From the NCBI GenBank assembly GCA_008632985.1, contig QPGO01000041.1:186001-250000 (forward strand): 64,000 bases of DNA, read 5' to 3'. Origin of the DNA: Psammoneis japonica. Its lineage: Eukaryota. Shown in pieces: positions 4,144 to 59,680 of the stretch. Below the pieces are notes generated by a model. It did no database searches and had not been told where the DNA came from. It saw only the letters and a program-made list of their open reading frames with translations. The position numbers and the translations under genes were made by a program. How positions within the stretch are numbered: the stretch's first letter is position 1; each line of letters starts with the position of its first letter.

Positions 4144-4277
4144 GGTTGTGGACCCCAAGTGTCACGCGTTGACGAGTGCTCCTGACCGAGTCATCGTCAC
4201 GGACGCATTCAGTTTGATTTTGAAGCAAACCCGGGAAATCGCTTGAGACTCCTTGCTCCTCCCGTCTTCATCCTGTC

Positions 4278-10872: not shown

Positions 10873-10893
10873 GCTCTCTCGGTTGAGAGGGAG

Positions 10894-11128: not shown

Positions 11129-12082
11129 TGTCCCAGATTTTGATGGTCATCAGCACATCAGAACTCTCTTTCCACTTGGTCAGTGTCCCACTCTCCAGCT
11201 GTTTTCACACTGCAAGCTTGTGTCAAGGTTCGCTTGTTCCACACAATCTCTGTGGATTTCTCTTGTTGTTGTGAGTGTCAACTGGACTCCTCACTCTCCA
11301 GCAGCATTTGCAAAAATGTTGGATGACTGCTTTGCAATGAAAACACAAACCCTTGTTGCAGCAGCAGCACATTTTGGAAGGATGAGAAAGTTGGTGAGTG
11401 TTCCTCCTGGCGAGAGTGCACAGAGTGGTCCCCAGCCCTCCTTTCAAAGAGTTGCCAGCCAGCACACCACACCCAGCCCACTGTGTGCTGCAGTTGGAAT
11501 TGTTCCTGATGGTTCCAACTGCAGCTTGCTTGGTTCAATCAAAAAGGGAGTGCAGGACATGTCACAGCTCCATTCCGACACAACTGAGTGCACCAACTGA
11601 TTGAGGCAAAACAGCATGCGCAGCAAGACACATGTGTGCAAAACTGTGCTGGCGCCGTGTGTTGTTGTTTGTTGGGGCAGTTGCCATGATCCAAATTCTC
11701 TCTCTGTGAGCATTTGAAACAATGTCACCAAAGAAAAGGGACAACAGAATCAAAATGAACAAAAGCAGCACAATTTGGACATTGCGGCAGAGAGCGAGTT
11801 TTGTGCAGGGGGGTGTCACCACAGCAACGCAAGGTCCAGTTTTTTTATCCTAAAATTTTGGTGGATCACCTTCAAACAAGCAATGTTCATTGCTTCTATG
11901 TGACAGCGCCGAGTGGCAAATAAAAAGCCGCTCCGATTCTCACGGTGGTGTTTTGAGGAATGGTGTACATGCGTGACTGAATGAGTCCCGTCTAGCTTCC
12001 ATTAGAAGCACACCACACCAAAACCGAAAACAACGGTCACAAGAAAAAAGACTCGACACACAAAATTTCGTGTCATTTGACC

Positions 12083-31968: not shown

Positions 31969-33422
31969 CCTTTTTGGGTTGTCACCTGGCAGTGGCTACG
32001 TATAGGCATGGCGTGGTGAATATTGGGAATAGATACGGAACCGTCAAACTGGATGAATGACCCGGAGACTTGACATCTAGTAGGTTAGATGATTTCGTAC
32101 TTGCGTCCCACAAGAAAAGCCCACATGGTGAGTGTGATTCACGTTTCCACGCTTCGCGCTTTGGGGGGAAGCAACAAGGGGAACATCGGGTTAACATGGG
32201 TTAACATTCATGCCGACGTTGACGTCTCGACTCGGCCCGGCTGCTTGTTCATTCTCAACAAAATTATGGCCAGTGCGACAAGATTGACGCTCTCTTAGCA
32301 TCCGGCCCGAAAACCAAATGAAGAGATGTGTTCTCTGCGGCCTTGATTCCCCGTCGATGACAAGCATGCATTCTTTGAGTAACGATGGTGCTGTCAATTT
32401 CTACATCGCGTGTGTGGTCTTGGCAGATAAAAAGATGACGATGCAAGGCACTTGTCCCACCCCATTGTGGAATTGACAATTGCCCCGTTCCCCAGAGAAT
32501 GGATGGGCGGGAAACCAGGCCAATGCTACTTCAACGTTGGCACAAACGATGTCTGGCTTGCTCGAGCGCCACTCCCGTCCAAAGCTACAGTGTGTAGTTG
32601 TTCCCTTGGAGACTCGACAGTTCTAGCTGCTAAAATCTAGCCAGAGGTAACACCACCCAAACCACGGACTTGAATGTGTCTCGCTGGCCTGCCCAGAGCA
32701 CCGTGTGCAGGTTGCAAAACCACATAAGTTGTAAGAGCATAACTGTCACACACTGCCTGTGCTCTCCCCCCCTTTACTGCCCCTCCTTTTTGTGACCCCT
32801 TTTGCACTTCCCGACACAGCTGCCCCTGTGGCCACGACCCCTGACCCCTCAAATGCCCTTCGCTCTTCTTCAACACCCCCTGTCAGGCTCTGTGGTCCAC
32901 CAAGAATCATGGGCAACCCTGCCACCAGCCAGCCCCAGATTGGCTGCAAACAACCACCCCTTCACCTCCTTTTGCTGGTGCAGCCATGCCAATGCCTCCT
33001 GCAACTGGGCTCTGGTTGCCACCTGTGTCACCATGCTGGGTTGAAAGCCAGCAGTTTTTCCTTGGCAGGAGCCTCTGACCACACACCTGCCAGGCTCTCT
33101 TTGCTGGCTGTGTCTTTGACATTGACAACTTCTTTTTTCTTGATGATCTGGGCCCATTTGACCATCCTTCAGACAACCCTCCCAGTGCCCCCCTTGTCAT
33201 TTTTCTGCCCTGGAAATGACCCATTTCCTGCCTCCTCCCTTCTTTCCTTTGAAAGCTTTCTCCTGCCTGTGCAGCTGCCTTGAAAACTCCTTTGGTGCCA
33301 TCAAGGTTGCCATGGTTGACCCACACTTTGCTGCCTCTCTCTTCTGCATGACCCTGCTGCCCTCTCTTTCCATTCCACCTGGCTCTCTCCCAACTTTGGC
33401 AGCTGCTTTGATGCCTCCACAT

Positions 33423-33423
<1 letters not shown>

Positions 33424-33477
<54 letters not shown>

Positions 33478-33507
33478 ACACACACACCACACACACACAC
33501 ACACACA
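33424..33507. repeat. (CA)n microsatellite with two interruptions
   Basis: Seen directly. Confidence 0.97.
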
Positions 33508-33508
33508 A

Positions 33509-36500
33509 ATGAAGCTTTCACCTCATGTTTCCAATGCCAAGTCTTCTCCCAAGCAGGAGAAAATTGTTCCGGTGCCTTTGGAGTCAATCTCTGAGCCGCC
33601 CAAAGACCCTGAAACCAAGCCAACATCTCAAGATGAAGCAGTGTTTTCACCCAGGCAAGAAGAACAGCCACGCTCACACCATCAATGTCAAGTGTTGCAA
33701 GAAGCAAGGTGACCCCAAGTGCCTCAAATTCCTGAAGAGCCACAAGCAACTCTTGGTGGGCCAGAATGTCAAGAAGCAAGCAGACAAGTTCCATCTCATG
33801 CGCACGTTGTTTCAAGGAGACATGCCACATGCGTCCAAGAATGGCGCTGTGAATGTTGAAGATGAGGCAGCCAAAGGAGCCTTCAAAAATGCCAGCAGCA
33901 CCTTGCAAGACATGTTTTCCCAAAGAGTGCACTTCAGATTCAGAGGCATTGTCTGCGGTGCAATCTCAAGAAACCAGAGAGCATGAAGATCCAAGAAATT
34001 GCTGCTTGGGTCCAAGAAGTGAACAAAGACCTCAAGTTTTGTCCTCCCTTTAAAGAAGACCAGAGTGTTGAGGAGGATGAGCTCAAGGATGTCCTTGACA
34101 ATCTTGCACCTTGCAAATGGCAGCACCAATCAACCGCTTGAGGTTTTGAAATTTTGAAACACACCTTTGACAAGTTGGTCAAGTTTTTTGAGCATTTGGA
34201 GGTGTTGCTGAGGATGTGTTTGACTCTGTCCATGTCAAGGCTGATGCCAGCAACAAGTCTGGATCAAAAGCCAAGGACGGATCCAACCATGGTTCCAAAA
34301 ATGGTTGCCAATCTGGTGCCAAATGATCTGAGTCTGAAAAGTGGTGCAGTTGTTGCAAAAAACCACTCGTGATGTGGGCACATGCTGGGTCTTTAAGAGA
34401 CTGGCAAAAGAATGCTGTGGAAACTGCGAGTGTGATCCAAAACAGTGCCGCTCAAATGGCAACTGCACGTGGTTGTGCTGCGATGACAGGGTGCCACTCA
34501 CAAAAAAGAGTTGAACGCCATGGCCATTCAGGCAGTTCAAAAAACACTCAAGACAAGTTCTTTGAACAAAGATGCAAAATGCAAGAGAAAGGAGCATGGC
34601 TCTTGTGCCCTCAGCGAGTCATTCCCAAGAATTGCTGTGCATCATTTTTTCAGAATGGGGGCAATCCACACTGGTCCAGCTGTTGTTGCTCACATGAATG
34701 CCTCTTTGGGCAAAGCAAAAAATGACCTCAACCATGATTTTGCACAAGTTCATGCAAAAAGTGAGAACAGAAAAATCTGCCACAAAAGTTTGGAAAACCA
34801 AAGGAGGGCTCTTCATGAATGACAGTCAGAGTAAAATCACAGCTCTCCTTGCCTGAATTTGATGAACATGAGATGATGGAAACAATGGCACATGCCTTGG
34901 GAGAAATGCGAGTGCTGCAGACTGTCCATGGGAATCTGTAGAGTGCCAGATGTGTTCTAAGAGCACATGAGTGAGCTCTTGGCAGGGCCAGAGTTTGTCA
35001 GAACTTGTGCTGACAATGTGCTGCACTGCATCTTGAAAAAGGTGATTTTCAAGACCAACGGTGTTCATGCACCTTGAACAGCTGGATTGAAGGTCAATGC
35101 TGAAAAGTCCTTTTTTGCTGAGTCCAAAGCAGACAATCCAGGCTTTTGCATCACTTGCAATGGCATCAGTCTGACACCCAAGAAAGTGGAGGCAATTTGC
35201 ACAATCACAACTCTCAAAACTTGCAAGGAATTGCAGTGCTTTGTCAACATGACCAACCACTGTCGAGACATGTGGCCTTGACAATCTCACTTTCTGGCTC
35301 CTTTGGAAAAGCTCACCTCATCCAAGGTGAAGTGGCAATGGACCAAAGCTGAACAAAAAGCCTTTGAAAACATGAAGCGCATCATTTCAAAAGACACACA
35401 TTGTTGTCACACCCAAATTTCAAAGAACCCTTTGAGACATGTGCTGATGGGAGCAATTCTCAATCTGGGTGGTCATTGTGCTGATCAACCAACCCATTGC
35501 TTTCTGCAGCAGCAAGCCGAATGGAGCACAGAAGTGTCACACTGCAATGAAAAAACAACTGCTGTCTTTCATGGAAACACTGAAAGAGTTCCGACATGTG
35601 CTGATTGGCCAACAAACAAGTGTGTGCACGAATCAAAAAAAAACTCACACACAAAAATTTCACAATGGACAGAGTCATGCATTGGTGTCCAACAACAGAA
35701 GAGTGCAGCCCCAAAACAATTCACCTCAAGGGCAAAGCTGACATTGTTGCAGATGCAGTCAGCTGACTCATTGTGAGAAAAATGGCGCCCATGGAAAATC
35801 TCAGCACAGAAGAATCAGCTGAAACGGCCCCACCAAAATCCCGCAACAATGTCTTTCCATTGACACGCAAAGTTTTTGATGCCAAACAGAAGTGGGACAA
35901 AGACATTCTGTCCAAATTGTCAAATGAGACATGACACACAAAGACTTTTTGTGGAGGTGAGTGAGACCAGTTGCTCACATGACACAAGGACAAAATCATT
36001 GTGCCAAAGACATTGCAAAAGGCAGTGACAGACTGGTGCCATGCACATCTTCTGCACACTGGCATGAATGGAACAGAAGAAGACAATTTCACAACACCCA
36101 TGGTGGTCCACCTTGCATGAAAACATGAGGAAATGTGTGGTGAAATGTGAGACGTGCAAAAATTAAAAAAGAAATGGAAGAAACATGGACAATTGCCCCC
36201 CAAGTTTGCAGAGTTGGTGCCATGGGAATGACTGTGTGTGGATCTCATTGGGCCACACAAGATGGTCACAAAGGAAAGAAGAAACCCCCAGCCTAAAATG
36301 TTTGACGATGGTTGATCCAGCAACTGGATGGTTTGAAGTCGTGGTGATCCCTGATGAGGAATCCACAACTGAAGCTGGGCCATTGGCAAGAACATGGCAA
36401 AGCGATGTTCTTGGCCATTGTCAACTGCATGTGACCATGGAAGTGAGTCCATTGGCCGCCAATTCAAAGACATGGTTCAAGATGATGATGGCACCAAAGT

Positions 36501-37761
36501 CAAGCCCATGACTGCACAAAATCCACAGGCAAGTGCAGTTGTTGAATGCATGCATCAAGCACCAGGCAACATGCTGTGTGCATTTGACCTGCAAAATGCA
36601 CCCCTGGATGCAGACAATCCATTCTCTGGCATGCCATCAGCAGCAGCTTTTGCTGTGCATTCTGGGCACCCAAAGACTTTTTGTGGAGAGGTGAGCAAGA
36701 CCAGTTGCTCATGTGTGTCACAAGGACAAAATCATTGCACAAAAGACACTGCAAAAGGCAGCTGCAGATTGGTGCCATGTGTGCCTTCTTCACCCTGGCA
36801 CAAATGGAGCAGAAGACACATCAATCTCACAACACCAATGGTGGTCCACCTTGTGTGAAGACATGCAAAAGCGAGTGTCAAAATGTGAGGCATGCCAAAA
36901 ATTCAAAAAGAAACAGAAAAATGTGGACTTTTGCCCCCTGCATGTGCAGAAGCAGTGCCATGGGAAATGACTGTGTGTGGATCTCATTGGACCATGCAAG
37001 ATCAGTGACAAGGGAAAGAAAAAACCCCTGCTGGTCCTCAAATGCTTGAAAATGATTGACCCAGCAACCGGATGGTTTGAAGTTGTGGAAACTCCAATCC
37101 ACAACTGCGGCTGGACTGTTGGAGAGGACGTGGCCAAGCAGATGTCCTTGGCCATCGTCAATTGCATGTGACCATGGAAGTGAACCCATCAGACACCAAT
37201 TCAAGGACATGGACCAAGGCATTAAAATCAAGCCCACAACTGCACAAAATCCGCAGGCAAGCACAGTCATTGAGTGCATGCATCAAGCGCCAGGCAATGC
37301 GCTGCACACATTTGACCCACAAAACACACCCACGGACACAGATGATCCATTCTTGAGCACACTGTGAGCAGAGGCTTTTGCCTTTTGCTGCATGTTCTGC
37401 ACACCACGCTGCTGTGCAAGCTGCGCCAGGACAATTGGTCTTCAACAGAGACATGATTTTCAATGTCCAACACATTGCTGGTTAAAACTTTGTCCAGAAA
37501 CAAAAACAAGAAATCACAAACAAAAACAATGCCCGAGAAAATGATTGATGCACTCCGTGCACATGCAGAGCTGGGGAAAAGTTGCCGCTCAAGAAACACT
37601 CCCAAAAAATTGCAACAGCCCCATTCTGGGCCACACGTGACAACAATGGCACATGCCAATGGCGTGGCACAGATCAAAAGCGGTGATGTCATTGATGCTG
37701 TCAATGTCCATCGTGTGACACCAGTTGACAAATGACTGCAATGTGCATTCAGGGAGGTGAG
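33509..37761 (+). mobile_element. Highly degenerate Ty3/Gypsy retrotransposon internal region; LTR limits not resolved
   Basis: RT relic (CRLSMGI...EFVRTCADN, i.e. RLPMG...YxDD) at about 34895-35020, RNase H relic PIAFCS, integrase CVDLIGP / LTMVDPATGWFE / NPQASAVVE, PPT-like CAGGGAGGTGAG at about 37750. Order RT-RH-IN. Confidence 0.88.
35938..37400 (+). repeat. About 730-bp tandem duplication of the Gypsy integrase region
   Basis: CAAAGACTTTTTGTGGAG starts both units (about 35938 and 36671); colinear integrase motifs occur twice. Confidence 0.9.
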
Positions 37762-38264
37762 TGCAATGCACATTGTCATGCACACTCACGTGCATGTGAA
37801 TGTTTTCACATTTTCAATTGTGCGTCAATTGTGGGTTTGTGCAAAGAAGGGCTGGTCAATCACAGAGAGTTGACTGGATGTCAGAAATTGCAAATGTGAT
37901 TGCACAATGATGTTGACATCTTGTGCATCAACAGCAATTGCGCCAGACAATCTGTTGTCACGGCTGCATTCTCCAAAAGGCGTTTCAGTCTGCAGAAGCA
38001 GCACAGAAGCCTTGGGGCATTGAGAGCTTGTTTGGAGAAACCCAAAATGATTGAGCAGATTTCAACTTCACAATTTTCACTTTTTGCACTTTGTTTTGAT
38101 TTCATTTGCGCTGATTCTTTGAGCACAGTGCAAAGCCATGGAAGCCAAGAAACAAAAAGACTCTACAGTGTCAGTGCTTTGAAACAGCTCCGCTGTTGAC
38201 AGCCCCCAAGAACAAGGGCCAAAAGTGGCACAACTCATCAACTTCTTTTACAAAATTGGCAAAA

Positions 38265-38475
38265 GCACCAAAGTGTCGTTCATCAAGCTGAGTGAAAGCA
38301 AGTGTGCCCAGGACAGAGTGCAGAGAATCATCTGCCAGTGAAAGTGAGAAAGCAAAAAGCACTTGACAGGTGCCAAAGTGTCAATGCTCATCAAGCTGAG
38401 TGAAAATGTGCCAAGGACAGAAAGCAGAAGTTTGTCATCTGCCAGAGGACATGGACGCCAACTGAGAAAGCAAAA
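38265..38475 (+). repeat. Diverged about 105-bp tandem repeat (2 units)
   Basis: CCAAAGTGTC..TCATCAAGCTGAGTGAAA..GGACAGA..TCATCTGCCAG occurs twice. Confidence 0.7.
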
Positions 38476-41400
38476 GGGGGAAAGAGCACTGCCCTGCGTG
38501 CAGCAGTCCAGCAATCTGTGCTTGTCAGTCAAGCAGGAACAGAGGACAAAGAGCAGGGCTCTGACAGCTGTGCTGGCCCTGCCATGGTTGTCTGCATTGG
38601 CGACAATGGCATGCTGCATGCACAGGGCAGCATGCCAAAGGTGTTGCAGCAGCCTGCAGCAGACCCCCCAATTGTGAGAGTGTTGGTGCAGTTGTGCATG
38701 AACAGCAGGTGACCCACACTGCAAGCATTGCACATTTGACTGGCTCCTGAAGTTGTGCCCAGTGACAAAAGCTCTGTGCAGGACACTGCACATTGCTTGG
38801 CACTCATCCAGAGCCAATGGAAAGTTTGAGTGAGGCTTTTTGTGGGAGGATGTGCCAACAGCCACGGGTTGGCTGAGCACCTTGCTGACTCTGAAACAGT
38901 CACAAAATCACCAACAGCTGCAGTCTTTGCAGCTGTTCAAAAATGTTTGTGTCTCAGAATTTGGTGCGTGAGGCAAGTGGTTTTGTGCAGGGGGGTGATT
39001 GGGCCTTTTTGCCAAAGATGAAAAACTGATGCAGGCACACATGGACCTCTTGCAGCCAGACAATCTCATGCATGGTCAAGCATCTGTCTGACATCACAAC
39101 GCAGATCATGGGGGGCATTGTTCAAGGGTGTGGTTGGTTGGGCACTTTTCTGCTGAAAACATTTTTGCCTCACTTTCAACATGGCAACTTCAGGCAACTC
39201 AGGTGAGTGCATCAAAGAGGGTCTGTGCACCAACTCTTGCTCATTGTGTGTTCCTTGTTCATCAAAGGTTAGATGTGCATCAAAAGTTTGCACATGCCCC
39301 ACTGCAATTTGGAGAACAAATGGTGGCACACATCTGCCAGTGCTGCCGCAGCATGTCCATGTCATGATGCTTGTTCTGTGTTGCTTTTGTTTTTCAGGAG
39401 CAGCAAAGAAATGCTGCAAAAATGTCACGGCACAAGATGAGGTCGAAAGACTCATCAGAGTCATGCAAAGGCAAGAATGGCTGAGAAGAAGATGCTCTCA
39501 GCTGTTTTGCTTCAACCCAGCAGAGAAAAGTGACACACCAGCTGCTGGGTCCCTGAGGCATGCTCTGAGTTGCACAAGTTTGTTGCATGCACTGAGAGCC
39601 ATGGGGACAATTTGCCAATGGCAGACTGTGACTCACCCTTGGCAGATGCTCAAGACAGGTCACCAACTCTTCACACCATCCAAGAGTTGTCAAGTGGCTT
39701 CTTTCAAGAACTTGTGTCAGTGTCATCATCAACTGACAACTCCTCAGAGCTGGTTGCAAGGGCCCTCTTGATGTGTGGCATTGAGTTTGAAGCTTTGGGA
39801 CACAACAACAAAATGAGTCAAAGTGCAAAGTGAGCTCATTCAGCACTGTGGGATGGCTCATCAAAGATTTGTCTTGGCACATCTGTGAGCAACTTGCTGT
39901 GCCCTGCCTGAAAAGAGGCAGTTGACCAGCGGGCAACCAACTGTGAAGCTGAAGAGCAGTTTCACACCCACATGGCACAAAGACCAGCGGCACCCAGCCA
40001 TGATCAGGAGACAGTGCTGGCTTCTGACATTTTCAAAGTGGGTGCTGCAGTTGTGCAGCACAAGTGCCTTTGTTGCCTGGTTGTTGATGCTGACCCAGAG
40101 AGATTCTCCCCCGTGCTGTTGCACAGGCACTCAGGACATTGCAGAGAGCAGCAACCTTGCAACATGGCCCAGCTCTGCCACAATTTGTGCTCTCAACAAA
40201 CCCCCCAGTGACCCCGCTGCACTTTCAAGCAATTGAGTTTCAGAAGCAAGACAATGCAAGAAAGCTGTCTGAGGAAAGACATGCTCTTTGCCATCATGGA
40301 AGCTGCTTTGTTCTAAAATTGGACAGTGACTTTTTCATTTTTTTGTTGTGGGACATTGTGAACAAAAGATGCACACTTGGATGACTTTCTTGAGCCCATT
40401 TTGGAGCAATGCCACTTTGTTGAAGTCAGCCAAGTGGAGGGCCACCTTTGAAAGATTCTGCTCTGTGCTGTTGGTTTGCTGCTGACATTTGTGTTGTTGA
40501 GGGTGCTGGTGTGGTGACCAAGAGAAGCTGCCAGAATGCCTGGTGACTGACAAGCATTGCTTGGATTTCATGGCCCAAGAATGCTCCCAACAAACCATGT
40601 GTTGAATTTCAAGATTGCAACAAGCAGCATCGCTGAAATTGCAGCAGGTCTGCAATCTGTGCAGTGCCAACAGTGTTGGTTGCTGGTTGAGCCATGACAG
40701 CAGAAGATGGCTGCCATTGCATTGAAGTTGTGCAGCAACACTGTCACAGCCATCAACCAAACTGAGTCAGCCATGAGCTCTTCCAACTTTTGCTTCTTTG
40801 GTGCATTGCATTTGCTTGCCACATGATCTGTCCCTGTTCTTTTGTGTCATGTCATGTTTTGTCATCACCTGGTTCTTTGACCTTTTCTGGCTCATGCTTG
40901 CACAGCTGCTTTGACTTCCTGCCATGGGCTTGCTTTGCAATTTTGCTCCATCCACAGCCAGCTTTGCAGGAGCCAGATGCTTTCACAACAAGGTTCTTCT
41001 GATGCCTGCTTGCAGCCCAAATTTGAACTCTGCTCACCAAACTCTTCAAGATCAGAAAAGGGTTTTTCTGGCATGTGCTGGGATTTGATTTTGCAAGCAC
41101 CACAACGCCTGCTCCAACTTCCCTGCAAATCTGAGCAATTTTGACTCAAGCACTTTCCCTTGGAATGCTTTGTCAGTTGTGGCCAAAATGGCTCCACACT
41201 TGGTTTGCAGCCAGACACTTTGACAGTCCTGGGATGCTCTTTTCATTGCACCTGCAATCCACTTCTAGCATGACTTGCTTGGCACCTTCTCTGTTCAGCT
41301 GCAGGCTGTGCTCAAATCAAGAACATCCTTGTTTTACCATCTCCTTGCACAAGTCCTCCTTTTGCTCTTTCAAAAGTTGGTTCTTCAGTGAGTTCCCACA

Positions 41401-44400
41401 CCCCAACTTCATTTAAAAAAACCATGCTGGTCTGGATCAGCGCAGCCTGTGTGACAATGAGGGGCCACATTTGGTGCCTTCTTTTTGGTTTCTTTCAATT
41501 GCTTGTTTGATGGCTCAATGAGCTTTTCCCACATGATGGCATTTGGGTCTTTGAGACATGTTTTCACATGCCTTGCTTGAATTTTTTCTGCATGAGAAGC
41601 ACAAGGAAATGACTTGTTCCAGACTTGGGTGTGCTCACGCGCAAAAAAATGACCCTTTGCCGCATGAAACGCGCGGTCCACACTTGCGGTGCCATTTTCG
41701 CCCAGTGAAAACACAACAATTTTCAAATGTGATGTCATGGGCACATGCAGAAAGGTCTTGTGCGTGCACCCATGCACTCAAAACTGTGGATGGACTCAGT
41801 TGTCAGTCACTAAATTGCGCCGCAAGTTGAGAGCTCTGTTTTCCGAGGAGCGATTTGCAGATGTCCAAATGTGTGCAGAAATGCACAAAATGTTGTTCTT
41901 GCACGCAAATGAACCCTCTAACATGACACAACCAATCTTTGGTTGCAATGCATGAATGCAACTTTGATTCAACGGATCGAACAAAACATGCGTTGATTGA
42001 CAAGTTTCGGACGACGTGAGAAGAAGGGCAGCTCAGCCCATGCAATGGCGTCGACTTCGGACCATTTTTCACTGTTCAAGAGGCGCGAACGATTGACGCA
42101 CTTGAATCAGTCGAATGTGTTGAGGAAGTGCACATGGCAATGGCAAAGAAATGGTCCTCAGAGGCAAATTGTGAGTGAGCTGAGGCCCAATTGTTGTTGC
42201 TGACAGATTTGGCATTGTTGTGCCGCGCTGCAGCCTGTGACAAGCACTTTCACTGTTGTTGTTGATGCCATGGACTGTGTCAAATGCGGAGGTCCTCGTC
42301 ATGACATTGAATTTTCCACGAGGCTGAAAAAAGTGGGCCGTCATGGTCACTGAAAGCCATGGCCGGTTTGGCTGTTTGTTTGTTCGAGTTCATTCTGTTT
42401 GTTTTGCTCACAAGCAATTGCAAAGCACAAAAAAATGTTTTTTCTGTGAAAAGGGGCATGTGCGCGCCACCCAAGTCTGGAACAAGTCAAATTTCTTAGT
42501 CTCCTGCAGCTCCTTTGCCAGTGATGTTGGCTTGCTTCTGTGCCAGATGGTTGCCTCCTTTTGACTTTCTGTTGGCCCCTCCCCAGCCAATGTGCACAGC
42601 AGTGTCTCAACCAAGATGTTGGTTGTTGCTGTCTGGCATCAGCAGATCCTGGCCAAATTTCTCAAGCAAGAGTTTTCAGCAACAACCGACTCACCCATCA
42701 TGTTGCTCGCACATTTGCCACTGTGCTTTCCAAAAAAAAATGCTGGGTTGTTTTCACCATTTTTCATCACCTTGTGCACTGTGTGACAGCATTTTATGAA
42801 AGAGGGTCAGCTGTGAGTTGTTGTGCAAGCAAGTCATGCCGGCTGCACCCACATGCTGATGGCAGCAATGTGCAAATGGTCCAGTGAGCAAGACCACCCT
42901 TGCTGGTCCACTTGGCCACGGTCAACTTCGTCATCAGCAAAACTGGAAGCAGCTCCGACAGCAGCCACAACCAACCTTCAATTGTCTGCTGTCATTTCAT
43001 GCACCTCATCTGGCAGCGCAGCATGAACCTTGTTCATTTCTTGCCAGGGGTTCCCATCTGATTGAAGAGGTCAAAAACGCAGTTGTCAGGAGGCCATCCA
43101 TGGATCAAAAAGAACAGAGTGCAGTCAGTCATGAGGTGGGTGTTGTGTTGATGATGTTGTCATCTGATCTTGGTGTCAAGAAAGGTCAATTTTTCCCTTC
43201 ATCACAAAGTGAGCCACAATTCTTGAATCCTGCATGAGACCCACTCAACTTGAATTTTTTGGAAGAACTGGCCAGACTTTGACCTCACCCAGCTGGAGCC
43301 ACAAAATGCCTGAGACATGTGCGCTGTCAGTCTCCTGCTGTTTGAACCAGTGTCTTTTTGAGAATGGACTGGGCATGCACTGTTCATGGCATCAGGCATT
43401 TGAAAATGGAGCTGACTTTTTGTGGAGCACCTCATTGCACGTGAAAGTGCAAGGGACAATTTTCAGTGACACCAGCTCTGTTTGAGGTGGCCCTCTGCTT
43501 GCAACCCCCCAAAATGTCAGGAACTCTGCACCAGCATAATTTCAGCAGGCTGGAATTGCACTTTGGAAAAAATTGGGGGTTTGTGATTGCACGTGGAAGC
43601 ATGTCGTTGGGCCCCACAGCTGCCAGGCAATCGCGCACTTTGCGACAAGAACCATGTCATGCATGGTCATTGGTCATTGACCATTCCAACATTGAGCAAA
43701 GATGACCCACAAAATTGTGCAGTGTCTTTCTTCTTTTGGGGTTGACCATGTCATGACCAGCAGCACGCATCTCATCCAAAATGTCTGACTCTTTGCGAGT
43801 GACACATGACAGGGGTGTGCTCCAGCCACTGCATTGTGATGGCATTGCAACTTGGTTTTAAATGGCTCCTTCCACTTGGAAAAATTGTGCATCTAAGTGG
43901 CATTGGGGGTTTCTTCATGATCCGATTTGTTCTTCTGGACATGTCCAACTCAGCCAACCGGTCTGTCCACATCTCACAACAATGTCGCCTGCAAAATCCT
44001 GGGCCTGCAAGGGTTCATGCAGCCAAGTGCACAGCCTCCTGACTGCAAGGCAAGGGAAGTCAGCCACATCATCATCCAACGTGTCCTTCTTGAACCCTTC
44101 AACCACATTCCCAATCTCCACAGACTGTGCGTGGCGCAAATCCATGGCGGCGGCAAAGCCTTGGTCAGCCATGCGCAGCCACCGGCTCCAGCCCCGAAGC
44201 CAGCCCCACTCAGACAGGCGCTGAAAGCAATGGTGTCTGCCATGGCTGCGCACAGCGAGCCCTCTTCAGAGGCACTGAAGTGGCATCACAAGTGCGGTGT
44301 CATGCAACAAAGGGTGATGAAAAAGAGTGATTTTTTGTTGCCGTGAATCCCTCAAAGCGAGAGCGCCGATCAACGGAAATGCAAGACGGCAAACAGCAAC

Positions 44401-44611
44401 CACGTGACAAAAATCATCACATGTGCATGCCCCGCTGAGCAGCGAGTCATTTCCAACGACCAATTTTCCATTGCGCTGCTTGGGTCCAACGAGCTTGCAC
44501 AGTGTGGGCAATGAGCAACTTCACCGTTCTCCCTGAACCGCGCGTTGAATCCGCTGTGAAACAAAACTGGGCTCAAGATGCAACGACAGATGTGGACGGC
44601 GCAGGTCGCGC

Positions 44612-45711
44612 ATGGTCACTGGTCATTGCAGCTGACACAATGTTGAATTTTGTGACCGACAAGATTGAGGATTTTTCTTCTTCCGGCACTTCAACTTGAC
44701 GAGATGATTGAGAATTGTCGGCATCATCGAACACGCACGTCATGTCATGGGAAATTGATCTTGGTTTCGAAATGACTGTGGCACTTCAAAGTCATCAGCG
44801 AGCAGAGATTTGTGGTGCTTTTGCAACGCAGTTGTGTGAAAAAACAATGTGCGGCTGCAGCACGTTTGAAGTGAAAACCAGGAGTGCCATCATTTGCTTC
44901 AAATTCTCTTTCGCAGAACTGGCCAGACCGCAGGTGGGTGCTCATGCTCGACAGCAGCAAGTCAATGCCACAACGTAAGTCTGAGCATTGTCAATGAACA
45001 CGCACGCATTGTACGTTAATTATGTAAAAGGCTACCGCATGACTGACTAGAGCACACCAAAGCAAGTTGCTTGGGGAATTGATCTTGGTTTTTTTAAATG
45101 ACTCGTCGCAGAGATAAAGTCATCGTCCGTTATAGATTTATGATACTTTTTGAAAGATGGTCATTGGTCATTGTAACTAACATAATGTTGAATTTTATGA
45201 CCGACAAGATAGAGGATTTTTCTTCTTCCGGCACTTCAACTTGACGAGATGATTGAGAATTATCGGCATCATCATCGAACACGCACGTCATGTTATGGGA
45301 AATTGATCTTGGTTTCGAAATGACTGTGGCATTTCAAAGTCATCAGCGAACAGAGATTTATGATGCTTTTGTAATGCCGTTGTGTGAAAAAACAATGTGC
45401 GACTACAGTACGTTTGAAATAAAAACTAGGAGTGCCATCATTTGCTTCAAATTCTCTTTCGCAGAACTAGCTAGACCGTAGGTAGGTGCTCATACTCGAT
45501 AGTAGTAAGTCAATGCCACAACGTAAGTCTGAGCATTATCAATGAACACGCACGTATTGTACGTTAATTATGTAAAAAGCTACCGCATGACTGACTTCTG
45601 ACTTAAGCACGCCAAAGCAAGTTGCTTGGGGAATTGATCTTGGTTTTTTATATGACTCGTCGCAGAGATAAAGTCATCGTCCGATAGATTTATGATACTT
45701 TTTGAAAGATG
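44612..45711 (+). repeat. About 550-bp non-coding tandem duplication (units about 44612-45157 and 45158-45711)
   Basis: Colinear alignment along the whole length. Confidence 0.97.
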
Positions 45712-45996
45712 CAGCCCGGGTATGGAAATATAAATCCTATTTATGTCATTTCAAGATGCTTCAGCGTCTTTTTTATCATACATACATCTATACAACATGT
45801 CGTTATTATGAAGCGTACGAATGAAACATACAGAAGATAGACATAATTTCGGTCATTTTGCAAAGTCTTTTCGGCATCTTTTCGGCATTGCGGTTTGTAC
45901 GCGTAGGGCCCTACCGGCTAGAGTGGCCCGTGTATCTTGTTGTTTCGTACTCGTAGTTTCTCACACTTGAGAAGAGCTATGCAAGAGTCAAGAAAG

Positions 45997-48900
45997 ATGA
46001 AGCATCTCGTTAACTTGATCTTGGCGCTCCTATCGCTGATGGCGACCGCTGAAGCCAAAGACGCGGTGGAAGGAGTGAGGCGAGACAAGCCCGGCAAGAG
46101 GTGGGGCGCGATAATCAAGAAGGGCAAAGAGTGCAACGGGAAGAAGTGCTCCTGCGATTTGTCCGACCTCCCAGATGACCCCAGTGAACTTGACTCTATT
46201 ATCATGGATTTCGGCAACGGAGACGTTGCTGAATTCACGCAGAATGGCCCGTTCAAGCAAGATTCTTTCCATGGGGAAGACTGGAATCTGGATGCCATGA
46301 ATCTTATTGTTAGAAGTAGGAAGGGCCAGACACGTGGTAAAACGTCCAAAACTGTGGTTGGTTCCATCTCTCATGGAGACAAACTATACAAGATCCAGTC
46401 GGACAAGAACGGAAAGTCAGAGATAATCGAGACCGACTGGGCTGACTATCCAGATGAAGCCGAGCCTGAAGAGGCTCCTCAAGAAAGTTTCGACGAGAGA
46501 ATGAGGCGTCTGGAAATCAGTAATACAGTGGAGAGGAGAACCTCTTCTGTTGTCAAGCCAGATTCCCATTGGATCGACGTAAATGGGCAGAGAGAACTAG
46601 CCAATGATCTTGGCGACAATATCGATGTCATGGTGGTATGGTCGCCCTTTGCTGGTAAGCAATAATATTTCATCTTTGTGTCTGCCCCTTTCTTGCGCTG
46701 ATGCTCACCATTGCGATGGTGCCTTCGTAATTTCCCATTGCTATTTACAGAATGTCGACAATCGGGGGAATCCGAGAATTGCGCACTCACGAGTCAAACC
46801 ACTACCAACATCTTAGCGCTTATTGACCTCGCAATTTCGGAGACAAATGCGGCTTACGACGCCAGCGGCGTCAACACCCAGCTCAGGCTCGTCCATGCCT
46901 ATCGCGTAGACTATGACGAAAGCCAGGCACAGAATTCGAATGACAACTTAGATTTTGGCACAGCTCTAAGTGAGCTCAGGACTCTAGGTGACGGCGTAAT
47001 TGATGACGTGCATTCTGAGCGCACGAAGTACGGCGCGGATGTTGTGGCGATGATTGTAGGCGGTACAACCTATTGTGGAATTGCCAACGTTGGACCAGCA
47101 ATTACAAGGTATGCTCAGTGTCACAGACTGTACTCATATGGAAGGGCATGGGTCGGCCTGTATCTTTCAAGGTTAAAAGAATGCCAAGCGAAAAGCCATC
47201 AGCGTCATTTCGCGACCTCTGCTATGACCTTCATCTCGCTCTTTCTTCTCGCTCTTTCTAAATTTTTTGAAATTCTTGTCCTACAGTATGTTCAGTGTTA
47301 CTTCGTTTACCTGTGCTACGGGTTACTTCAGTTTTGGACATGAGATTGGTGAGTTCGATGATCTCGTTGTGCTGACTGATACCCTTATTATATTGTGTTG
47401 GTGTTAGTCTTTAAACTTACACTGTTCCATTTCGACCTATTTTGAGCTTTGCAGGACACAACATGGTAAGCCAACCCTGCCTTCTTTGTAAGTCATGCGT
47501 AGATTGAGGAAACAGCTTCTGAACTTAAAGCGATATGTGTTTCCGCGATTAAACAGGGATGCTTACACGACCTGGGAACCTCGAATGCCTGTTCGTCCTC
47601 GAACTATCACTATGGGTGAGCTGTGGTTCTGATTTGTGTATAGATTGTCTCCTCTGTGTTCTGACTTTCTCAAGCAACTTGCTGTTTTGCATCGTCTGCT
47701 TCATCATAGATGGAGAGATCCTGATGCCGCGTTTCGCACCATCTTAGCATACAATTGCGTGTCTGGCCAGTGCGACGGAAATGCAGGTGGCAATTGCCCC
47801 CGCATACAGCGTTTCTCTACTCCATCCGTAAGTTCACAGCGTGCGCAGCAATGCCGATGTATTTTGTTATCCTAACTTGCAGTCGCCCCACGCTTTTGTG
47901 GCGGTGACAGATCACCTATAATGGAGAGGCTCTTGGGAGCGCGATAGCGAACAATGCTCAACAGATCAATGATGTTAAGGGGACTATTGCGGCTTACTTC
48001 CCTGTTGGCGGATCAACAAACTCACCAACACCATCGCCCACGCCTTGTTTCTCCAATGTTGTCGAAGTGACCATCAACACGGATAACTATCCTGGTGAAA
48101 CGACGTGGGGTGTTGAAGATTCGGCAGATGAGGTCGTTGCCAGCGGCGGCCCTTACGCAAGCGCTGGGACTACCTATGTCAGGACACTTTGTCTCCCGGA
48201 TGGTGATTATACCTTTACAATCTTTGATTCCTGTAAGGCTTCAAAATGGCATGAGTTATTTGTGATTTTTTTTTCATTGCACTTCGAGCTCATTTGGAAA
48301 TTGTTCGTTCTCCTTTGATCTTAGACGGCGACGGCCTTTGTTGTAGTTGTAAGTCTTGGCAATAATCTGAGTATTGTTGCGTTTTCGCTTTGCAATTTTG
48401 TCGCAGCTTACGCTTTAAACTGTTTTGTTCGCGGTTGATCTCAGATGGAAGCGGCAGCTACGAATTCGCTCTTCAGCCGGGAAACGTAATTCTAGGGGGG
48501 TCCACTTTCGCCAATAAGGCGTCCGAGACCACGCCATTCACATTGGGCTCTGCTGCTACTGGGGCCCCAACGGAATCTCCGACGAAGAACCCTACAGGAT
48601 CTCCAAGTGCAGCTCCATCAGCGACGCCAACCTCGTCGCCGACTCCTTCCCCTCCACCAACGGCTTTTCCAACTGGGTCCCCGTCGTCATCTCCATCAGC
48701 GACGCCAACCTCGTCGCCGACTCCTTCCCCTCCACCAACGGCTTTTCCAAGTGGATCCCCGTCGTCATCTCCATCAGCGACGCCAACCTCGTCGCCGACT
48801 CCTTCCCCTCCACCAACGGCTTTTCCAAGTGGATCCCCGTCGTCATCTCCATCAGCGACGCCAACATCGCCGCCGACTCCTTCCCCTCCACCGACGACAT

Positions 48901-49085: not shown

Positions 49086-49384
49086 AAGTTTATACAGCAC
49101 TTGTTGATCCCTAAGCTTTTGACGTCTATTGTATGTGGCGAGAGCTTCAATGGTGGGTGGTTTTGATGGCATTTGATTTGATTGGTGTCACTCCCTAGAT
49201 AAGATTCTCTCTAGTTTTTGTTTCAAAGAATGGTTCAATGCGCTTGCGCTGTAAGTTCATAACCAGCTCTTCCACAGATCCTTCGATACAGTCAACATGT
49301 TGTCCTTTTGCGTGTCGGGATCGGCGCAGCTCTTCTCGTCCCCTTCTGTTCGTCGCAACGTTCTCTGCCACCCGTGTCGGTTTT

Positions 49385-50215
49385 GCCCATTCCTTGCCCT
49401 TGAACCAACTGTCCACATCCCAAACCTGAGGGTGCCTCGATGCATTCCAATGGGCCCACGGAACCAGTGCACTGTTGTTGTGCCTGGTGTCAATCGATGA
49501 CAACAAGGGACGAACCGGTGGTTGTCCCCAGATCAATCAACTTGCTCTGCAATCCAAGTGGTCAAGTTCAATTGCAAGGATGGCAACAATTAAATCCTCA
49601 CATGTTGTGGATGGTCAAAATGTCTGAACTTCCAGTCAATGCCACCACTCTAACCAACTTTGTCTTGTCCTTTCCCCCCTGTGTCATGCAGCAAGTGTTG
49701 GACTTGACTGCCATCATGACAAGCAACGACCATGTCCACAAATTGTCAGTCACTGGAAGCATCAACACAACACACAGGCCAGACAGGCTGCCCCTTTGTG
49801 TCAGGTCTCAAGGCCATTTTGATGAGTGCACAGCATCATCTCCCTTGTCACAGTTTGTGTGTCTTGGAGGTGCCTCCCGACTGCTGGGAGTGGGCCAAAT
49901 TGATTGCATTGCCAGACAACAATGATGCAAAGCACCCTGGAAGTTGTTGTCATGGGCAAGGATTCACAGTTTTGGCTGGAATGGCATGGGTCCAAAGCCA
50001 CTGATGTGTCCATGTGACCCTTGGGATTGCCAGATCAAATTGATGCTCTTTTACATCCAGAGCATCAATTTTCAGTGACAAACAACAGTGGCGGTGATGA
50101 CTGCACAGTGTGTTGGCACATTGTTCAGGTTTCTGCCACTGCCGACACAGTGCAGCCCAGCACTCCTGGTTTGTGATGAGCTCTTGCCCTTTCTTGCACT
50201 GGCACATCCACTCCA
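49385..50215 (+). pseudogene. 5'-truncated, hypermutated copy of the RING/RCR-FBA gene
   Basis: Aligns to about 31085-31968 with stops and frameshifts; flank homology continues to about 51000 (versus 32745). Confidence 0.95.
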
Positions 50216-51393
50216 GAGTTTGCAAGATTGAATTTGCTGGGTTGTCACCTGACAATGACTGTGTGTCAAGAGATGGCATCACAAAGATTTGGAGTCAGTG
50301 CAGGGCCATTAAACTGGATGAGTGATTTGGAGATTTGATGTCCAGCAGGTTGGATGATGTCATGCTTGCCTCCCATGAGAAAATGCAGCAGATGGTGCAT
50401 TTCATGTTTCATGACATGTTTTTTCTCACAGTTCAGGAGAAAGCAGTGCTGGGGTTGCTGGGTTGACATTCATGTGGGGAGGTTGACATGTCAACATGGC
50501 ATGGTTGCTTGTGCACCCTCAACAAGAAAGCAATGGCAAGTGCAACAAGATTGGTGCTCTCTCAGCATTGGTGTGCTCTGTGACCTTGGTTGACCATTGG
50601 TGGGAAGCACACACATGTCTGTCATCTTGGGGGTGGGGGAGACGGCGACACAAAGCACTCATCCAACCCCCTGCTGTGGAGTCAAGTTGTGAAAAAACCA
50701 CAAAAGGTGAGCGACTTTGCATTTGTGCAAGAGCCAAAATGAATGAATTGTCAGGAAATCAGATCAGCGCTGCTTCAGCATTGGCACAAACAATGTCTGC
50801 CTGGCTTGCTCAAGCACCTCTCCCGTCTAAAGCAGCAGTGTGTGGCCACTCTCTCGGCGACTCAGCGGCTCTGGCTGCTGCTGCTGCCAGCCAGAGGCAA
50901 CAGTGCCCAAACCACGGATGTGAGTGTGCATCACTGGCCTGCCCAGAGCACTGTGCACAGGTTCTTGCAAAACACAGAAGCTGCGCAAGAGCATGGCTGG
51001 CAGGTGTCTGCGAAAGGCCCAACCGGCAAATGAATCGTGGAAAGGGACAGGCGGGATTCCTCAACGAATCGTTTTTGGGCCTCTGGACCATCTGCAATGT
51101 TGTGACGTCAGAGCAACGTCACGTTTGATTGTTAAAAGAGTGTCCCGGCTTTATTGTCATACAAAAGCACGATTTTACACATCAAATAATATACTCAGAT
51201 AAATTCTATGATGGACACTCTATTATTTTTAAATCTCTTGACGTCAATCAGAATCGTGCAAACCTGAAGAAGGAAAACATACGACAACTTGTGTAGATTT
51301 CTACGAGGTGTTTGAAAGCCTCTCGAGCACTCCAAAAAAAAAACTCAAAACGCAAAACTATGTTGACGATGGCATAGTTTTTTCTTTACCAGC

Positions 51394-56086: not shown

Positions 56087-57649
56087 GTCTCGTGTGTTTT
56101 TTGTGTTTCTCTTGTTGTGCTTTGTTTCTTACAAAATGTGCTCCTTCTTTCTTGCGTTTTCCTGCTTCTAGTCGTACATAGAGCAACGTTGAGAGAAAAT
56201 GCGTTTACTTTCAAATTTCAAAAATACATTATGGAGCATTGCGCATACTCGTCGTCGAGGATGAAAATGACACTGAAAAATTGCTTTATCATTTTCAGAG
56301 CTGATTTGAAAATTTGACCATTATTCAAGATTGTAGATCTTTATAATGTAATCAGGGAAAATGAAAAAAGATTTACACGAATGGGCCAGCATCACGGACG
56401 AATGGGCCCAGTGGGGCCCTGCGCAGACATGTTGTGTGATTAGGCTTGGGGTTTTAGGGGGGAGAATTTTTCAATAAAAGGGGGCATCCCCCAGATAAAA
56501 AAATCGGGGGCCCAGATTTTGGAAAGCACCAAGAATGGATGATCAAATGAACCTAAAAAGCTCCAACTGTTGGCACCCAGACTCACCTGTCATTGTGTGC
56601 AATGAACAGAGAGACAGTCTCATCTTGTCCGACAGATGAATTGTGGGAATGCCAGGGAAAGTGCCAAGATGGTGCCCAGCCCTCATCTCTTTCTTGTTGA
56701 CCGGCCTCGGTCACTTGAGCTTCAGAAATGGGGATGATTGCACACGGGCATGAGAAGAGCTGCTGCAGGCAGGTGGAAGCCACAGGTGGAAGTTGGCTCA
56801 TCACCAGATGATTTGTCTGCAACAGGGGTGTCTTCCGCCGTCGCATCTTTTTCATTCTCCTGTCTCGCTCAGTGCACTGCGTGCTGCGTCACCACAAGCA
56901 CCACACTTGCCACTTGCATGCATGCAATGTGCTCACAACCCATGTCTCCAGACAAAATAAACTGCCCCCTCCCGCTCCCCCTAAAAACCCCAACCCATGC
57001 ATGACAGACCCTTTGTTTCTTGGAGCCCACCCACAAAACAACGAAAAAGGGAAATTTGTGCAATCAAGCAGTGCCACATGAACACGAACACGGGATGGGT
57101 TTCATGTGGCAAATTTGATGGCCTCCTTGCAGATTCTGAACAGCATCTGTTGCCAGCACAACTTGCAAACCCGCCCCACTGCATTGGCCTGTGCTGTGGT
57201 CCGTGGTCACTTGGCAAGGGCAGCACCTGCCCCACGTGGCAGTGCTGAGCAGCAATGTGCACACAGCCCTTTGGGATGTCTCGACTCAGTGTTGGGGCAG
57301 GGGCAAGCCAGCAGCACCATCACCATCCTTCTGGCAGGGACATCCTGAGCTGATCTCTGAGATGAGGAAATCGTGGGGTGGTTTGAGCCTTCCCTCCAAC
57401 CAGCCTGCATTGCAGAGCACAACAACATGTGCCAAGTGGCAGCACTGCTCAAGACACAGCTTGAGATGCTTGTTCTTTTTCTCCTTTTTTGATCTGGCAA
57501 GACCTGCTCTGTCAGGTTTTTGATGGATGATGAGATGGTGCACCCGCCGGCTGCATGAGCCACTGGTGCCAAAATGTCTCCACACTTGCTTGCTGTCTTG
57601 CAACTTGTTGGCAGTTGTGTTCTGCTCTCTGTGCTCAAATGTTTTCTTG

Positions 57650-58520
57650 AAGAACTTTGGCATGTGTTTGCAACTCACCAGACAAATCAGAGACCAGAGA
57701 CTGAGCCCCATGTTTTCTCTTTAGCAGCTCCGGCAATCCCCAATGCATTTCTCTTTGTGCACGTGCACCTTGGCTGAACATGCCTTCAAAGCTTCCTCAA
57801 TGTTGGCTTGTTGCAAATTCAGTTTTTGTTTGAGGCACTCCAGCTTTTGCTGCAAGTCAAGCCCACCTTTTGTTTGCTTTGACTCTCAACTTCAGTGTCC
57901 AAATGCTTGAATTTTCTTCCTTGGTTGAAGCAAAAACATTTTTCCAATGCTGCAACAGATGTGTTGGTGTGCAGGGGGATGACAAACCATCCACCAACTT
58001 CTTTTTTTTTAATTCACAAGCCTTGGCTTGCCAGCTGTGTGGGCAATGTTGTTCTTGACCAAGTTGTGCTCACAACTTGTGCTTGCAGCTGAGCTTGTTG
58101 TGTGAGTCATCAGCTCTTGAGAAACGGATGGATTGACTGCTGTGGCAGTGGCTGACAGCCCTTGAAAAAGGTGGGGTCAAGGCAAGTGCACTGCTTGGCA
58201 TCCTTCAAGGCTTTGCCCCAATTTTCTGGCCCACTGCATGATGCACTTTGATTGGAACAAAATGCATGATTGGGTGGATCCTGCAGAACAGCCTTGGCAC
58301 AACATCCAATGGCTGACTTGCAGTTTTATGAGGCAAAGGCATTGTTTTCAAGACTGAGTCACCATGTTGAAAGACATGCGGGTGAGATCTTGAAACACTG
58401 GCACTCTCTTAGATCTCAGATTGCACCCACAAGCTCCTGCATGGGAAGGCTTGCACTTTGCACTCCAGCTGCTGTTGCACTCACAAATGCTTGATGATGT
58501 TCTGCAGTGTGTTTGCAGGT
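57650..58520 (-). pseudogene. Hypermutated, internally deleted copy of the TPR-prefoldin gene including its intron and flanks
   Basis: Aligns to about 52620-53640, lacking about 53100-53290. Confidence 0.92.
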
Positions 58521-59423
58521 CCAAGATCTCAAACAGGCTTGCCAAAATCAGAAATCCATCAAGCCCTGTCATCACTTCAGGAGGAAACCTGCCTGCATCA
58601 TGGCTTCTGCTTGTCAAAACAACACCCTGTTTGTGGCAACCAGTGACATTGTTGTGCCAAAAGTGGGGGAGGAATGTCTTCTCCTTCTGCAATGTGCCTC
58701 TGCTGCAAAGGCAAAGCATGCAGAGTTCTTGCTGTGTCCCAGTCAACACTGCTGCACATGACACCACTTCAGGGAGAGCTGTCAGTGACAGATGACACGG
58801 CCCTGGTTTGTTCTCAAAAGCTGCTCCGTGTCATCAAAATTTGACCCAGGACACCATTGGGGCAGTCAGTGGTGCAGGTGGTTTGGACATTGAGAAGCTC
58901 TTGTCTTGAGCATCTGCCATGTTTGCCAAAGACAAAACTCACAACATTTTTCAAAATGTTTCAATTTTGAACTGTCATGTGACATGGGCTGCTCTCTCAG
59001 CATTGAGATGTCCAATGATTGTGGATGAGTGAGAGCCCAACTTTGGCTGTTGGTGGAACCATTGCAAGTGACTTTGAAGACAGAAGGCAAGGAAACACCA
59101 GGTCTTCTGCAAAAGCAATTCTGGGTCTGTCTTTGACTCAATGCCGGCAACTTGGGCTCACGCTTGGTGCTCTTGCCAAAGTCACCTGCTGCGCACATGA
59201 GAATGGTTGATGCATTGTTGAAAAAAAACACAAGGACATCTGCATCAACAAAGAGAGGGGCTGTTGCTTGAACTCTTGAACTGCACAATTCATGACATCA
59301 AAAGTCACAGGGACCAAGCAGCAACAGCAACACTCTCAGGTGTGACTGATGGCAGCCCACTTGACCAAGAAGACATGCCCATGCTCAGATTTGTTTTGAT
59401 GGGATGGCAACCTTTGTAGACTG

Positions 59424-59680
59424 AGGTGTGGAGTGTTTCTCAGCCACCGCGGGCCAGATCTGACAGTCCATCTGTTGCACACTGTTGTCAAAAGCAAGAA
59501 ACTGGTTCAAGACCATGTCTTTCTTGACAATGTGCAAATGCCCATCTGTCAGCAGACCAGACATGAGGCACATCATGGGCCCACACTAGATGGGCTCATG
59601 GCAAATTTCTCTGGCTTCGCTCATTCCCTTTTCTGGACATGTGCTGCATTGCAGCTTGTGTCTGTTTTGGAAGCCTGACA
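59424..59680 (+). pseudogene. Possible degenerate TIR-domain coding relic
   Basis: RCGVFLSHRGPD (Y-x-VFLSHRGPD if TGT was TAT), followed at suitable spacing by VFLD. Confidence 0.45.

Follow-up and report, generated by a model that had tools for sequence, protein, structure and literature searches.

Hypermutation of silent DNA at TpA dinucleotides is so far known from one preprint on one alga, where it takes the form of scattered new mutations in two viral inserts. In mutation-accumulation lines of the chlorarachniophyte Bigelowiella natans, according to the main text of that preprint, two integrated viral regions received 231 of the 302 new point mutations; with a single exception these were A>G or T>C changes, each of which fell on TpA (bioRxiv 10.64898/2026.01.13.699255). 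The rate was approximately 1000 times the background, the mutations occurred in some lines only, and the larger of the two regions, the nucleocytoplasmic large DNA virus (NCLDV) region, is single copy and transcriptionally silent (bioRxiv 10.64898/2026.01.13.699255). The same text describes 124 clusters of TpA-poor, CpA+TpG-rich 1-kb windows which are enriched in transposon and viral domains, and in it Mettrop et al. 2026 propose an ADAT2-like adenine deaminase, itself unproven (bioRxiv 10.64898/2026.01.13.699255). From the 211 mutations, 6169 TpA sites and 3132 generations given there, a rate of approximately 1e-5 per TpA per generation can be computed, fast enough to remove TA well before the background divergence reaches 1%. 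The main text of the preprint nowhere uses the words diatom, stramenopile, CpG or boundary, and literature searches returned no report of repeat-induced point mutation (RIP), of transposable element hypermutation or of TpA hypermutation in diatoms. Here we analyse 64,000 bp of DNA from the diatom Psammoneis japonica (contig QPGO01000041.1, positions 186,001 to 250,000; hereafter the window, in whose coordinates all positions are given), where the signature appears carried to completion: half of the DNA is without TA, in an ecologically weighty group. A tandem duplicate lies across the edge of one of its TA-free domains and makes a natural experiment, in that one sequence is present twice, 548 bp apart, with one copy apparently erased up to a border 5 bp wide. 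The diatom and B. natans both belong to the supergroup of stramenopiles, alveolates and rhizarians (SAR).

Two further systems invite comparison. RIP is a fast mutagenesis, context-specific and limited to transitions, by which transposons and gene copies are inactivated and which spreads into their flanks. It is known from Neurospora and other ascomycetes (see also the RIPCAL paper, PMC2621366). Like RIP, the pattern in the diatom is transition-only, context-specific and seen as a shift among TA, CA and TG. However, TA is made there and destroyed here, the target is cytosine there and adenine or thymine here, and both copies are mutated there, whereas here only the copy inside a domain, and a single-copy flank, are affected in a host that is no fungus. 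ADAR hyper-editing of double-stranded RNA changes A to G on both strands and prefers a 5′ U or T. ADAR favours a 3′ G, whereas a 3′ pyrimidine is preferred in the diatom domains. Moreover, unlike a retro-copied edited RNA, the conversion seen here appears to cross in place from a transposon-rich domain into the duplicate and to stop inside it.

A tandem duplicate across a domain edge

The original prediction described a tandem duplicate in which one unit had lost TA over its first part, and alignment of the two units (Table 1) confirms a head-to-tail pair with a unit of approximately 548 bp and 91% identity. The three bases ATG are the sole microhomology between the duplicate junction and the left flank, as expected for microhomology-mediated duplication. 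No third copy of the unit was found within the window, where the only other matches were a weak one of 41 bases at 25666-25705 and the unit's own internal repeat. Tandem Repeats Finder did not report the pair, because its period is above the 500-bp limit of that program.

The units differ by 37 substitutions, comprising 32 transitions in which the left unit has G/C where the right has A/T, one transition of the opposite sense (45056) and four transversions. Within the converted part of the left unit, 30 of 32 differences are transitions, all of them A/T in the right unit and G/C in the left, with none reversed; conversely, not one of 156 right-unit G/C sites reads A/T in the left unit. Over roughly its first 400 bp the right unit contains 24 TA sites, whose counterparts in the left unit are CA (12), TG (10), TT (1) and TA (1), so the predicted counts (22 TG or CA, one TT, one kept) were exact. 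The prediction had also put further A:T to G:C differences at about eight, mostly at AA/TT; there are eight, which in terms of the adenine strand are AA (5), GA (2) and CA (1). Conversion in the first part of the left unit was strongly context dependent, at 22/24 for TA, 5/75 for AA, 2/55 for GA and 1/62 for CA (TA against all other adenines, Fisher p = 2e-21). By comparison, the background divergence between the units is approximately 1%, and CG is retained at 17 of 18 sites of the converted part, in keeping with the claim that essentially all CG sites are shared. The process is fast, with 92% of TA converted while the background stood at approximately 1% and CG was untouched. TG and CA outcomes alternate along the converted part (17 runs against 11.9 expected), and since they form no strand tracts there is no sign of a processive scan of a single strand.

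The conversion ends abruptly. Site 45007, which is CA in the left unit and TA in the right, is the final converted site, and over the remaining 150 bp the left unit retains 10 of 12 TA, the first of them at 45012, where the prediction had put the change at about 45010. Conversion differs sharply on either side of this border (22/24 vs 0/10, p = 5e-7). Furthermore, the TAs kept past it include GTAC and TTAT, contexts almost never spared inside the domains. For both reasons the border is real, with a width of approximately 5 bp. The 717 bp directly upstream of the left unit contain no TA, and the converted 400 bp, with one TA (2.5 per kb), resemble the 12 kb to their left. On the other side, TA density is 60-89 per kb over the right unit and the following 269 bp, and the right unit itself, at 60 per kb, resembles ordinary DNA.

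Could such a pattern be produced during sequencing or assembly, by diverged alleles or read errors placed in tandem or by miscalled base modifications? The reads at hand are three public runs of one sample, possibly the assembly's own source, and their contig depths are coarse. Diatoms are diploid, all reads come from the one sample, and the right unit has a depth of 34-53, below the 63 of its flank, all of which would suit an artefact. However, the summed depth of the two units (approximately 104 + 44) is roughly 2.3 times the single-copy depth of 63 and not equal to it, which, coarse as these depths are, agrees better with two real copies than with two alleles. Exact read contigs at a depth of approximately 63 also reproduce 2.2 kb of TA-free domain, matching 42500-43178 with 0 differences and 43153-44682 with 3, and none of the variants listed for the read contigs of this sample lies inside 44612-45711. 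Run X2 gives no cover across 43669-45839 and run X3 none at all, and uncovered parts were not taken as evidence. Nor would an artefact yield the replacement of tyrosine by histidine or cysteine in a transposon, the CA/TG discordance of its long terminal repeats (LTRs) or a sequence rule holding across 32 kb, all described below. We consider an artefactual origin very improbable.

TA-free domains and the direction of change

A domain 12 kb long ends with the converted 400 bp of the left unit, and it is one of five that were located from the dinucleotide profile of the window (Table 1). Together the five sum to 31,895 of the 64,000 bases and contain 101 TA, compared with 1,320 TA in 31,185 bases of ordinary DNA. 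This corresponds to 3.2 vs 42.3 TA per kb and to observed/expected ratios of 0.05 vs 0.60. CA and TG are raised to match, with observed/expected ratios of 1.68 and 1.77 in the domains vs 1.18 and 1.21 in ordinary DNA. Position lists of TA and CG show the domain edges to be abrupt. The domains are discrete, hold a Copia element and dead gene copies, and also span flanking host DNA.

Table 1. Coordinates of the tandem duplicate, the TA-free domains and associated features in the window.
Feature	Position	Strand	Remarks
Left unit of tandem duplicate	44612..45157		546 bp; first 396 bp apparently TA-erased
Right unit of tandem duplicate	45158..45711		554 bp; unconverted; 24 TA in first 401 bp
Converted part of left unit	44612..45007		from site-by-site comparison with right unit
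Older internal repeat r2 of left unit	45070..45157		outside domain; paralogous to 44745-44835; twin 45625-45711
Erasure border	45007..45012		last converted TA site 45007, first kept TA 45012
TA-free domain A	2844..11845		holds Copia retrotransposon
TA-poor domain B	20539..24922		ends approximately 1.1 kb upstream of paralogous metalloprotease gene (ATG 26030)
TA-free domain C	32776..45011		12 kb; right edge inside left unit; core CG-poor, last 1.1 kb or so keeps CG
TA-free domain D	49288..51132		holds dead copy (49385-51002) of gene region 31086-32748
TA-free domain E	56555..61331		holds dead copy (57640-58537) of TPR co-chaperone-like gene 52613-53659
Copia-type LTR retrotransposon	3909-11131		LTRs 3909-4146 and 10894-11131; reverse transcriptase (RT) open reading frame 8523-10223; gag-pre-integrase, SH3-like and RVT_2 matches
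Secreted reprolysin-like metalloprotease gene, expressed	45979..47349	+	ATG approximately 1 kb right of border; spliced contigs of run X2

Without TA, domain DNA has neither TAA nor TAG stops nor any tyrosine codon. Long stop-free stretches are seen in all six frames, for instance in 42000-45000, where TGA alone can stop, and the open frames of the Copia element are long because TAA and TAG cannot occur. Gene finders would predict many false, tyrosine-free proteins in such DNA. A Pfam search of 88 stop-to-stop frames (at least 110 aa) from the domains gave matches only to parts of the Copia element, an FBA remnant and a lipase remnant, with no match to the frames of domains B, C and E.

The direction of change was examined in three independent cases in the window, the first being the RT frame of the Copia element. 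This frame (Pfam RVT_2, E = 2.6e-29) has 1 tyrosine in 567 residues, compared with a tyrosine content of 2.5-4.0% in 24 database relatives. In an alignment with 21 homologues, all ten conserved tyrosine columns are altered, reading His (CAT/CAC) in 5, Cys (TGT/TGC) in 4 and Trp in 1, while other conserved residues are kept at 46-100%. The second case is the pair of LTRs of the element, which are by nature identical at insertion. Here they differ at 32 of 238 positions, including approximately 9 adjacent double differences of CA vs TG, and at three further sites one LTR has TA and the other CA or TG. A repeat inside domain C carries 19 CA/TG double differences in 553 aligned bases; two control pairs from ordinary DNA have 3 in 1134 bases and none among the six commonest doubles listed in 1290. 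Such double differences are the signature expected when each copy has independently resolved an ancestral TA or CG. In the third case live genes could be compared with their dead copies. In three aligned segments, 31/36, 8/10 and 34/38 of the TA sites of the live copy correspond to CA or TG in its dead counterpart, with 0 kept, whereas two control paralogue pairs, both outside the domains, keep 64% and 69% of their TA. All 16 tyrosine codons compared are lost in the two dead copies (8 Cys, 6 His, 1 Arg, 1 stop), and four of those lost from the dead TPR copy encode, in the live gene, tyrosines conserved in the TPR domains of human STIP1/HOP. By outgroup comparison, these cases settle that TA is ancestral and CA/TG derived in the domains.

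Live and dead copies also differ by swaps of CA for TG, at 19/187 (31086-32301 / 49385-50568) and 12/121 (52613-53659 / 57640-58537), far above chance for doubles. This suggests cycling through CG or TA intermediates in the domains, for example CA to CG to TG.

For the tandem duplicate itself, an outgroup is provided by the internal repeat r2, which lies outside the domain in both units. At both of the alignable informative sites (44812 and 44815) it has A, like the right unit. We infer from the domain context and these two sites that the left unit is the derived one, in agreement with the original prediction that TA was lost there. No similarity was found between the 1-kb regions upstream of the two metalloprotease paralogues, which therefore provide no paralogous outgroup for the unit. 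We consider it probable that the duplication came first and that TA was then lost from the left unit in situ, through a position-confined TpA hypermutation of a silent DNA domain.

Several observations weigh against this interpretation. The only outgroup for the tandem unit is its internal repeat, which supplies 2 sites. Seen in isolation, the pair agrees just as well with C>T at CpA, for if the differences over the whole unit are read in the C>T direction their contexts are 22 CpA, 6 CpT, 2 CpC and 1 CpG, with site 45050 unclassed. Eight of the 30 changes here are off TpA, whereas the main text of the B. natans preprint has all on TpA. The read evidence comes from one sample, perhaps the source of the assembly, with the library type off record. 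Finally, none of 76 metagenome loci related to the Copia element has a 1-kb window with a TA observed/expected ratio <0.30, and the process is thus not general to hosts of this element. The best identity to a relative of the element is 47-58%, so that neither an unconverted close copy nor an independent second host was found. The process is therefore a property of particular hosts and not of the Copia element.

The C>T direction amounts to classical RIP, in which the first 400 bp of the unit would have been TA-free already before the duplication, the right copy gaining its TA afterwards by C>T at CpA. In its favour, the context ranking of the unit differences (CpA > CpT > CpC/CpG) resembles the preference of RIP, and the tandem duplicate exceeds 400 bp. 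However, RIP mutates both copies, and the left copy has no private C>T in its first part (0/156). The changes would moreover have to break off at a point, unit position 396, that is not an edge in the right copy (CA/TG sites changed 22/84 vs 0/16, p = 0.02), and they would have had to restore an ordinary TA density in the right copy. The internal repeat has A at 2/2 informative sites, three cases within the window prove the opposite direction, and the organism is a diatom. An initial reading as RIP of the right copy was dropped once the dinucleotide profile showed TA-free domains. Unlike in fungal RIP, TA is ancestral by outgroups and a single copy is changed, and that only in part. It is thus highly improbable that RIP explains the duplicate, and loss of TA from the left unit is retained as the preferred explanation.

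Context, targeting and proposed mechanism

Inside the domains, survival of TA also depends on the flanking bases. Relative to ordinary DNA, the density of surviving TA is 0 for ATAT, 0.009 for ATAC/GTAT, 0.012 for ATAG/CTAT, 0.03 for GTAC and 0.035 for ATAA/TTAT. It rises to approximately 0.1 for CTAC/GTAG, GTAA/TTAC and CTAG, and reaches 0.29 for CTAA/TTAG and 0.31 for TTAA. Given this ranking, the target is best written 5′-TAY-3′ (Y, pyrimidine). At asymmetric sites whose direction of change could be polarised, the strand reading TAY was the strand changed in 33 of 44 (p = 0.0013).

CpG methylation decay was also tried as a cause, since it shares the end products TG and CA and is present in the cores of the TA-free domains, most of which are poor in CG, with observed/expected ratios of 0.03-0.3. 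In the converted part of the left unit, however, TA is retained at 1/24 sites while CG stands at 17/18, so that the change of CG to TG or CA is absent there and this candidate was rejected. The two footprints also differ. At most edges the TA-free zone extends 60-340 bp past the CG-poor zone, and at the right edge of domain C it does so by approximately 1.1 kb. The young Copia element has CG at 0.5-0.9 of expectation and no TA. TA loss is thus the faster of the two and has a footprint of its own, with the slower CpG-poor zone nested inside the TA-free zone.

Three duplicate pairs, the tandem pair and two dispersed ones, show conversion only in the copy or part that lies inside a domain. It follows that position matters, not duplication. 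The process needs no second copy, and duplicates in gene space are spared. An erased copy beside its intact twin likewise implies that targeting goes by place and not by sequence or copy number. The original prediction had held that the process is separate from CpG decay, that it ranks TA far above AA and other contexts and that it depends on position in a domain rather than on being duplicated, and all of this agrees with the data presented here. What guides the mutator becomes an answerable question at the duplicate locus.

The domains occupy long intergenic stretches and end near genes. For two paralogous metalloprotease genes the border is found 1107 bp and 985 bp upstream of their shared MKHLV start. 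Elsewhere, one domain stops 237 bp before the ATG at 12083 and another 261 bp before the ATG at 51394, one begins approximately 210-330 bp from the ATG at 20210, and two further edges lie approximately 340 and 325 bp past stop codons. Over the metalloprotease gene to the right of the duplicate, contigs of run X2 skip 46654-46749 and 47107-47284 with GT..AG ends. X2 thus behaves as an RNA run, the skipped stretches are introns of the metalloprotease gene and, since the contigs over it are spliced, this gene is expressed.

Several traits are shared with B. natans. In both, as far as the main text of the preprint goes, A:T changes to G:C at TpA on either strand, giving TpG or CpA, in discrete regions and without being triggered by duplication, and in both TpA-depleted, CpA+TpG-enriched clusters are enriched in transposon and viral domains. 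The left unit has the same traits, namely A/T to G/C transitions (if its direction is read as above), TpA turned into TpG or CpA, and no role for a second copy. By analogy, the diatom domains are probably of the same kind as the TpA hypermutation of B. natans, now in its end state. The two cases differ in host, a diatom here and a chlorarachniophyte there, and in targets, which are an LTR retrotransposon, dead gene copies and flanking DNA here and giant-virus and virophage inserts there. The TA observed/expected ratio is 0.05 over half of the window, compared with the 0.45 given in the preprint for the NCLDV region of B. natans. Further features of the diatom window are the preference for TAY, borders near genes that are sharp to the base pair, and a slower loss of CpG nested within the TA-free zone. 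What is new here is the few-base border inside a duplicate, the targeting by place, the preference for TAY, the minor activity on AA, GA and CA, and the footprint distinct from CpG decay.

We propose that a targeted process converts A:T to G:C at 5′-TA-3′, best at 5′-TAY-3′, within a silent domain. A single event on either strand would make the palindromic TA into TG or CA and so end its susceptibility, and a domain would consequently reach a TA-free state with a twofold excess of CA and TG. The chemistry is most likely an enzymatic deamination of adenine to inosine in DNA. Confinement would be by position, with the process filling intergenic, transposon-rich DNA and stopping a few hundred bases (approximately 1 kb here) short of active genes. 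If so, the zone of approximately 1 kb upstream of the metalloprotease gene would have been protected, and a single ancestral unit inside it would have kept its TAs. The duplication, by adding 548 bp, would then have shifted most of the upstream copy, namely its first 396 bp, beyond the protected zone, and these bases would have been erased up to the border. Such a protected zone would explain why only part of one copy is converted.

A modification of thymine offers a different chemistry for the same sites. A dioxygenase would oxidise T at TpA to 5-hydroxymethyluracil or 5-formyluracil in silent chromatin, and mispairing with G would result in T>C. Oxidised thymines do form mispairs with G, and in dinoflagellates 5-hydroxymethyluracil is found preferentially at TpA. 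T>C at RTA (R, purine) is moreover the mirror image of A>G at TAY, and the sequence patterns fit thymine oxidation equally well. However, we know of no report of oxidised thymine bases in diatoms, and the sole experimental precedent, the B. natans preprint, proposes in its main text an ADAT2-like deaminase, itself unproven. Thymine oxidation is accordingly regarded as an unlikely source of the pattern, and deamination of adenine as the preferred one. A broader possibility, which we put forward tentatively, is that stramenopiles and rhizarians have in common an ancient genome defence, a chromatin-guided 5′-TAY-3′ adenine deaminase of nuclear DNA, whose reach the borders of active genes would limit to within a few bases. 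Were this true, it would be a natural, domain-addressed adenine editor of double-stranded DNA, and about half of the diatom DNA sampled here would have been rewritten to a TA-free form.

Neighbouring genes and repeats

For one ordinary gene of the window the best relatives are without exception diatom proteins, with an identity of at most 66%, which makes the host a diatom that has no close sequenced relative in the database searched. Within domain C, at 43001-43668, the depth of the read contigs climbs from approximately 63 to 220-760, and loose-end flanks belonging to other copies contain TA. From this depth, that part of the domain belongs to a multi-copy repeat family.

A dispersed segmental duplication (25993-32748 / 45960-51002) has its copies approximately 20 kb apart, at 72-83% identity. 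It comprises the gene for the secreted, reprolysin-like metalloprotease and, after it, a gene of RING/FBA type. Of the second copy, the metalloprotease part lies in ordinary DNA and the RING/FBA part is dead, inside a TA-free domain. In-frame tandem repeats of 63 nt and 78 nt (28970-29508 and 48519-48986) encode Pro/Ser/Thr/Ala-rich linkers of the metalloprotease paralogues, and the repeat units at these two places differ between the paralogues. Two live TPR co-chaperone-like copies (52766-53632 and 61749-62621), which are 96-98% alike, lie on either side of the domain with the dead third copy. Finally, an inverted pair of O-fucosyltransferase-family genes, at 12866-14077 (+) and 15889-16557 (-), lies in ordinary DNA of normal TA content, and the arms of its inverted repeat (12929-13878 and 15896-16855) are 70-82% complementary.

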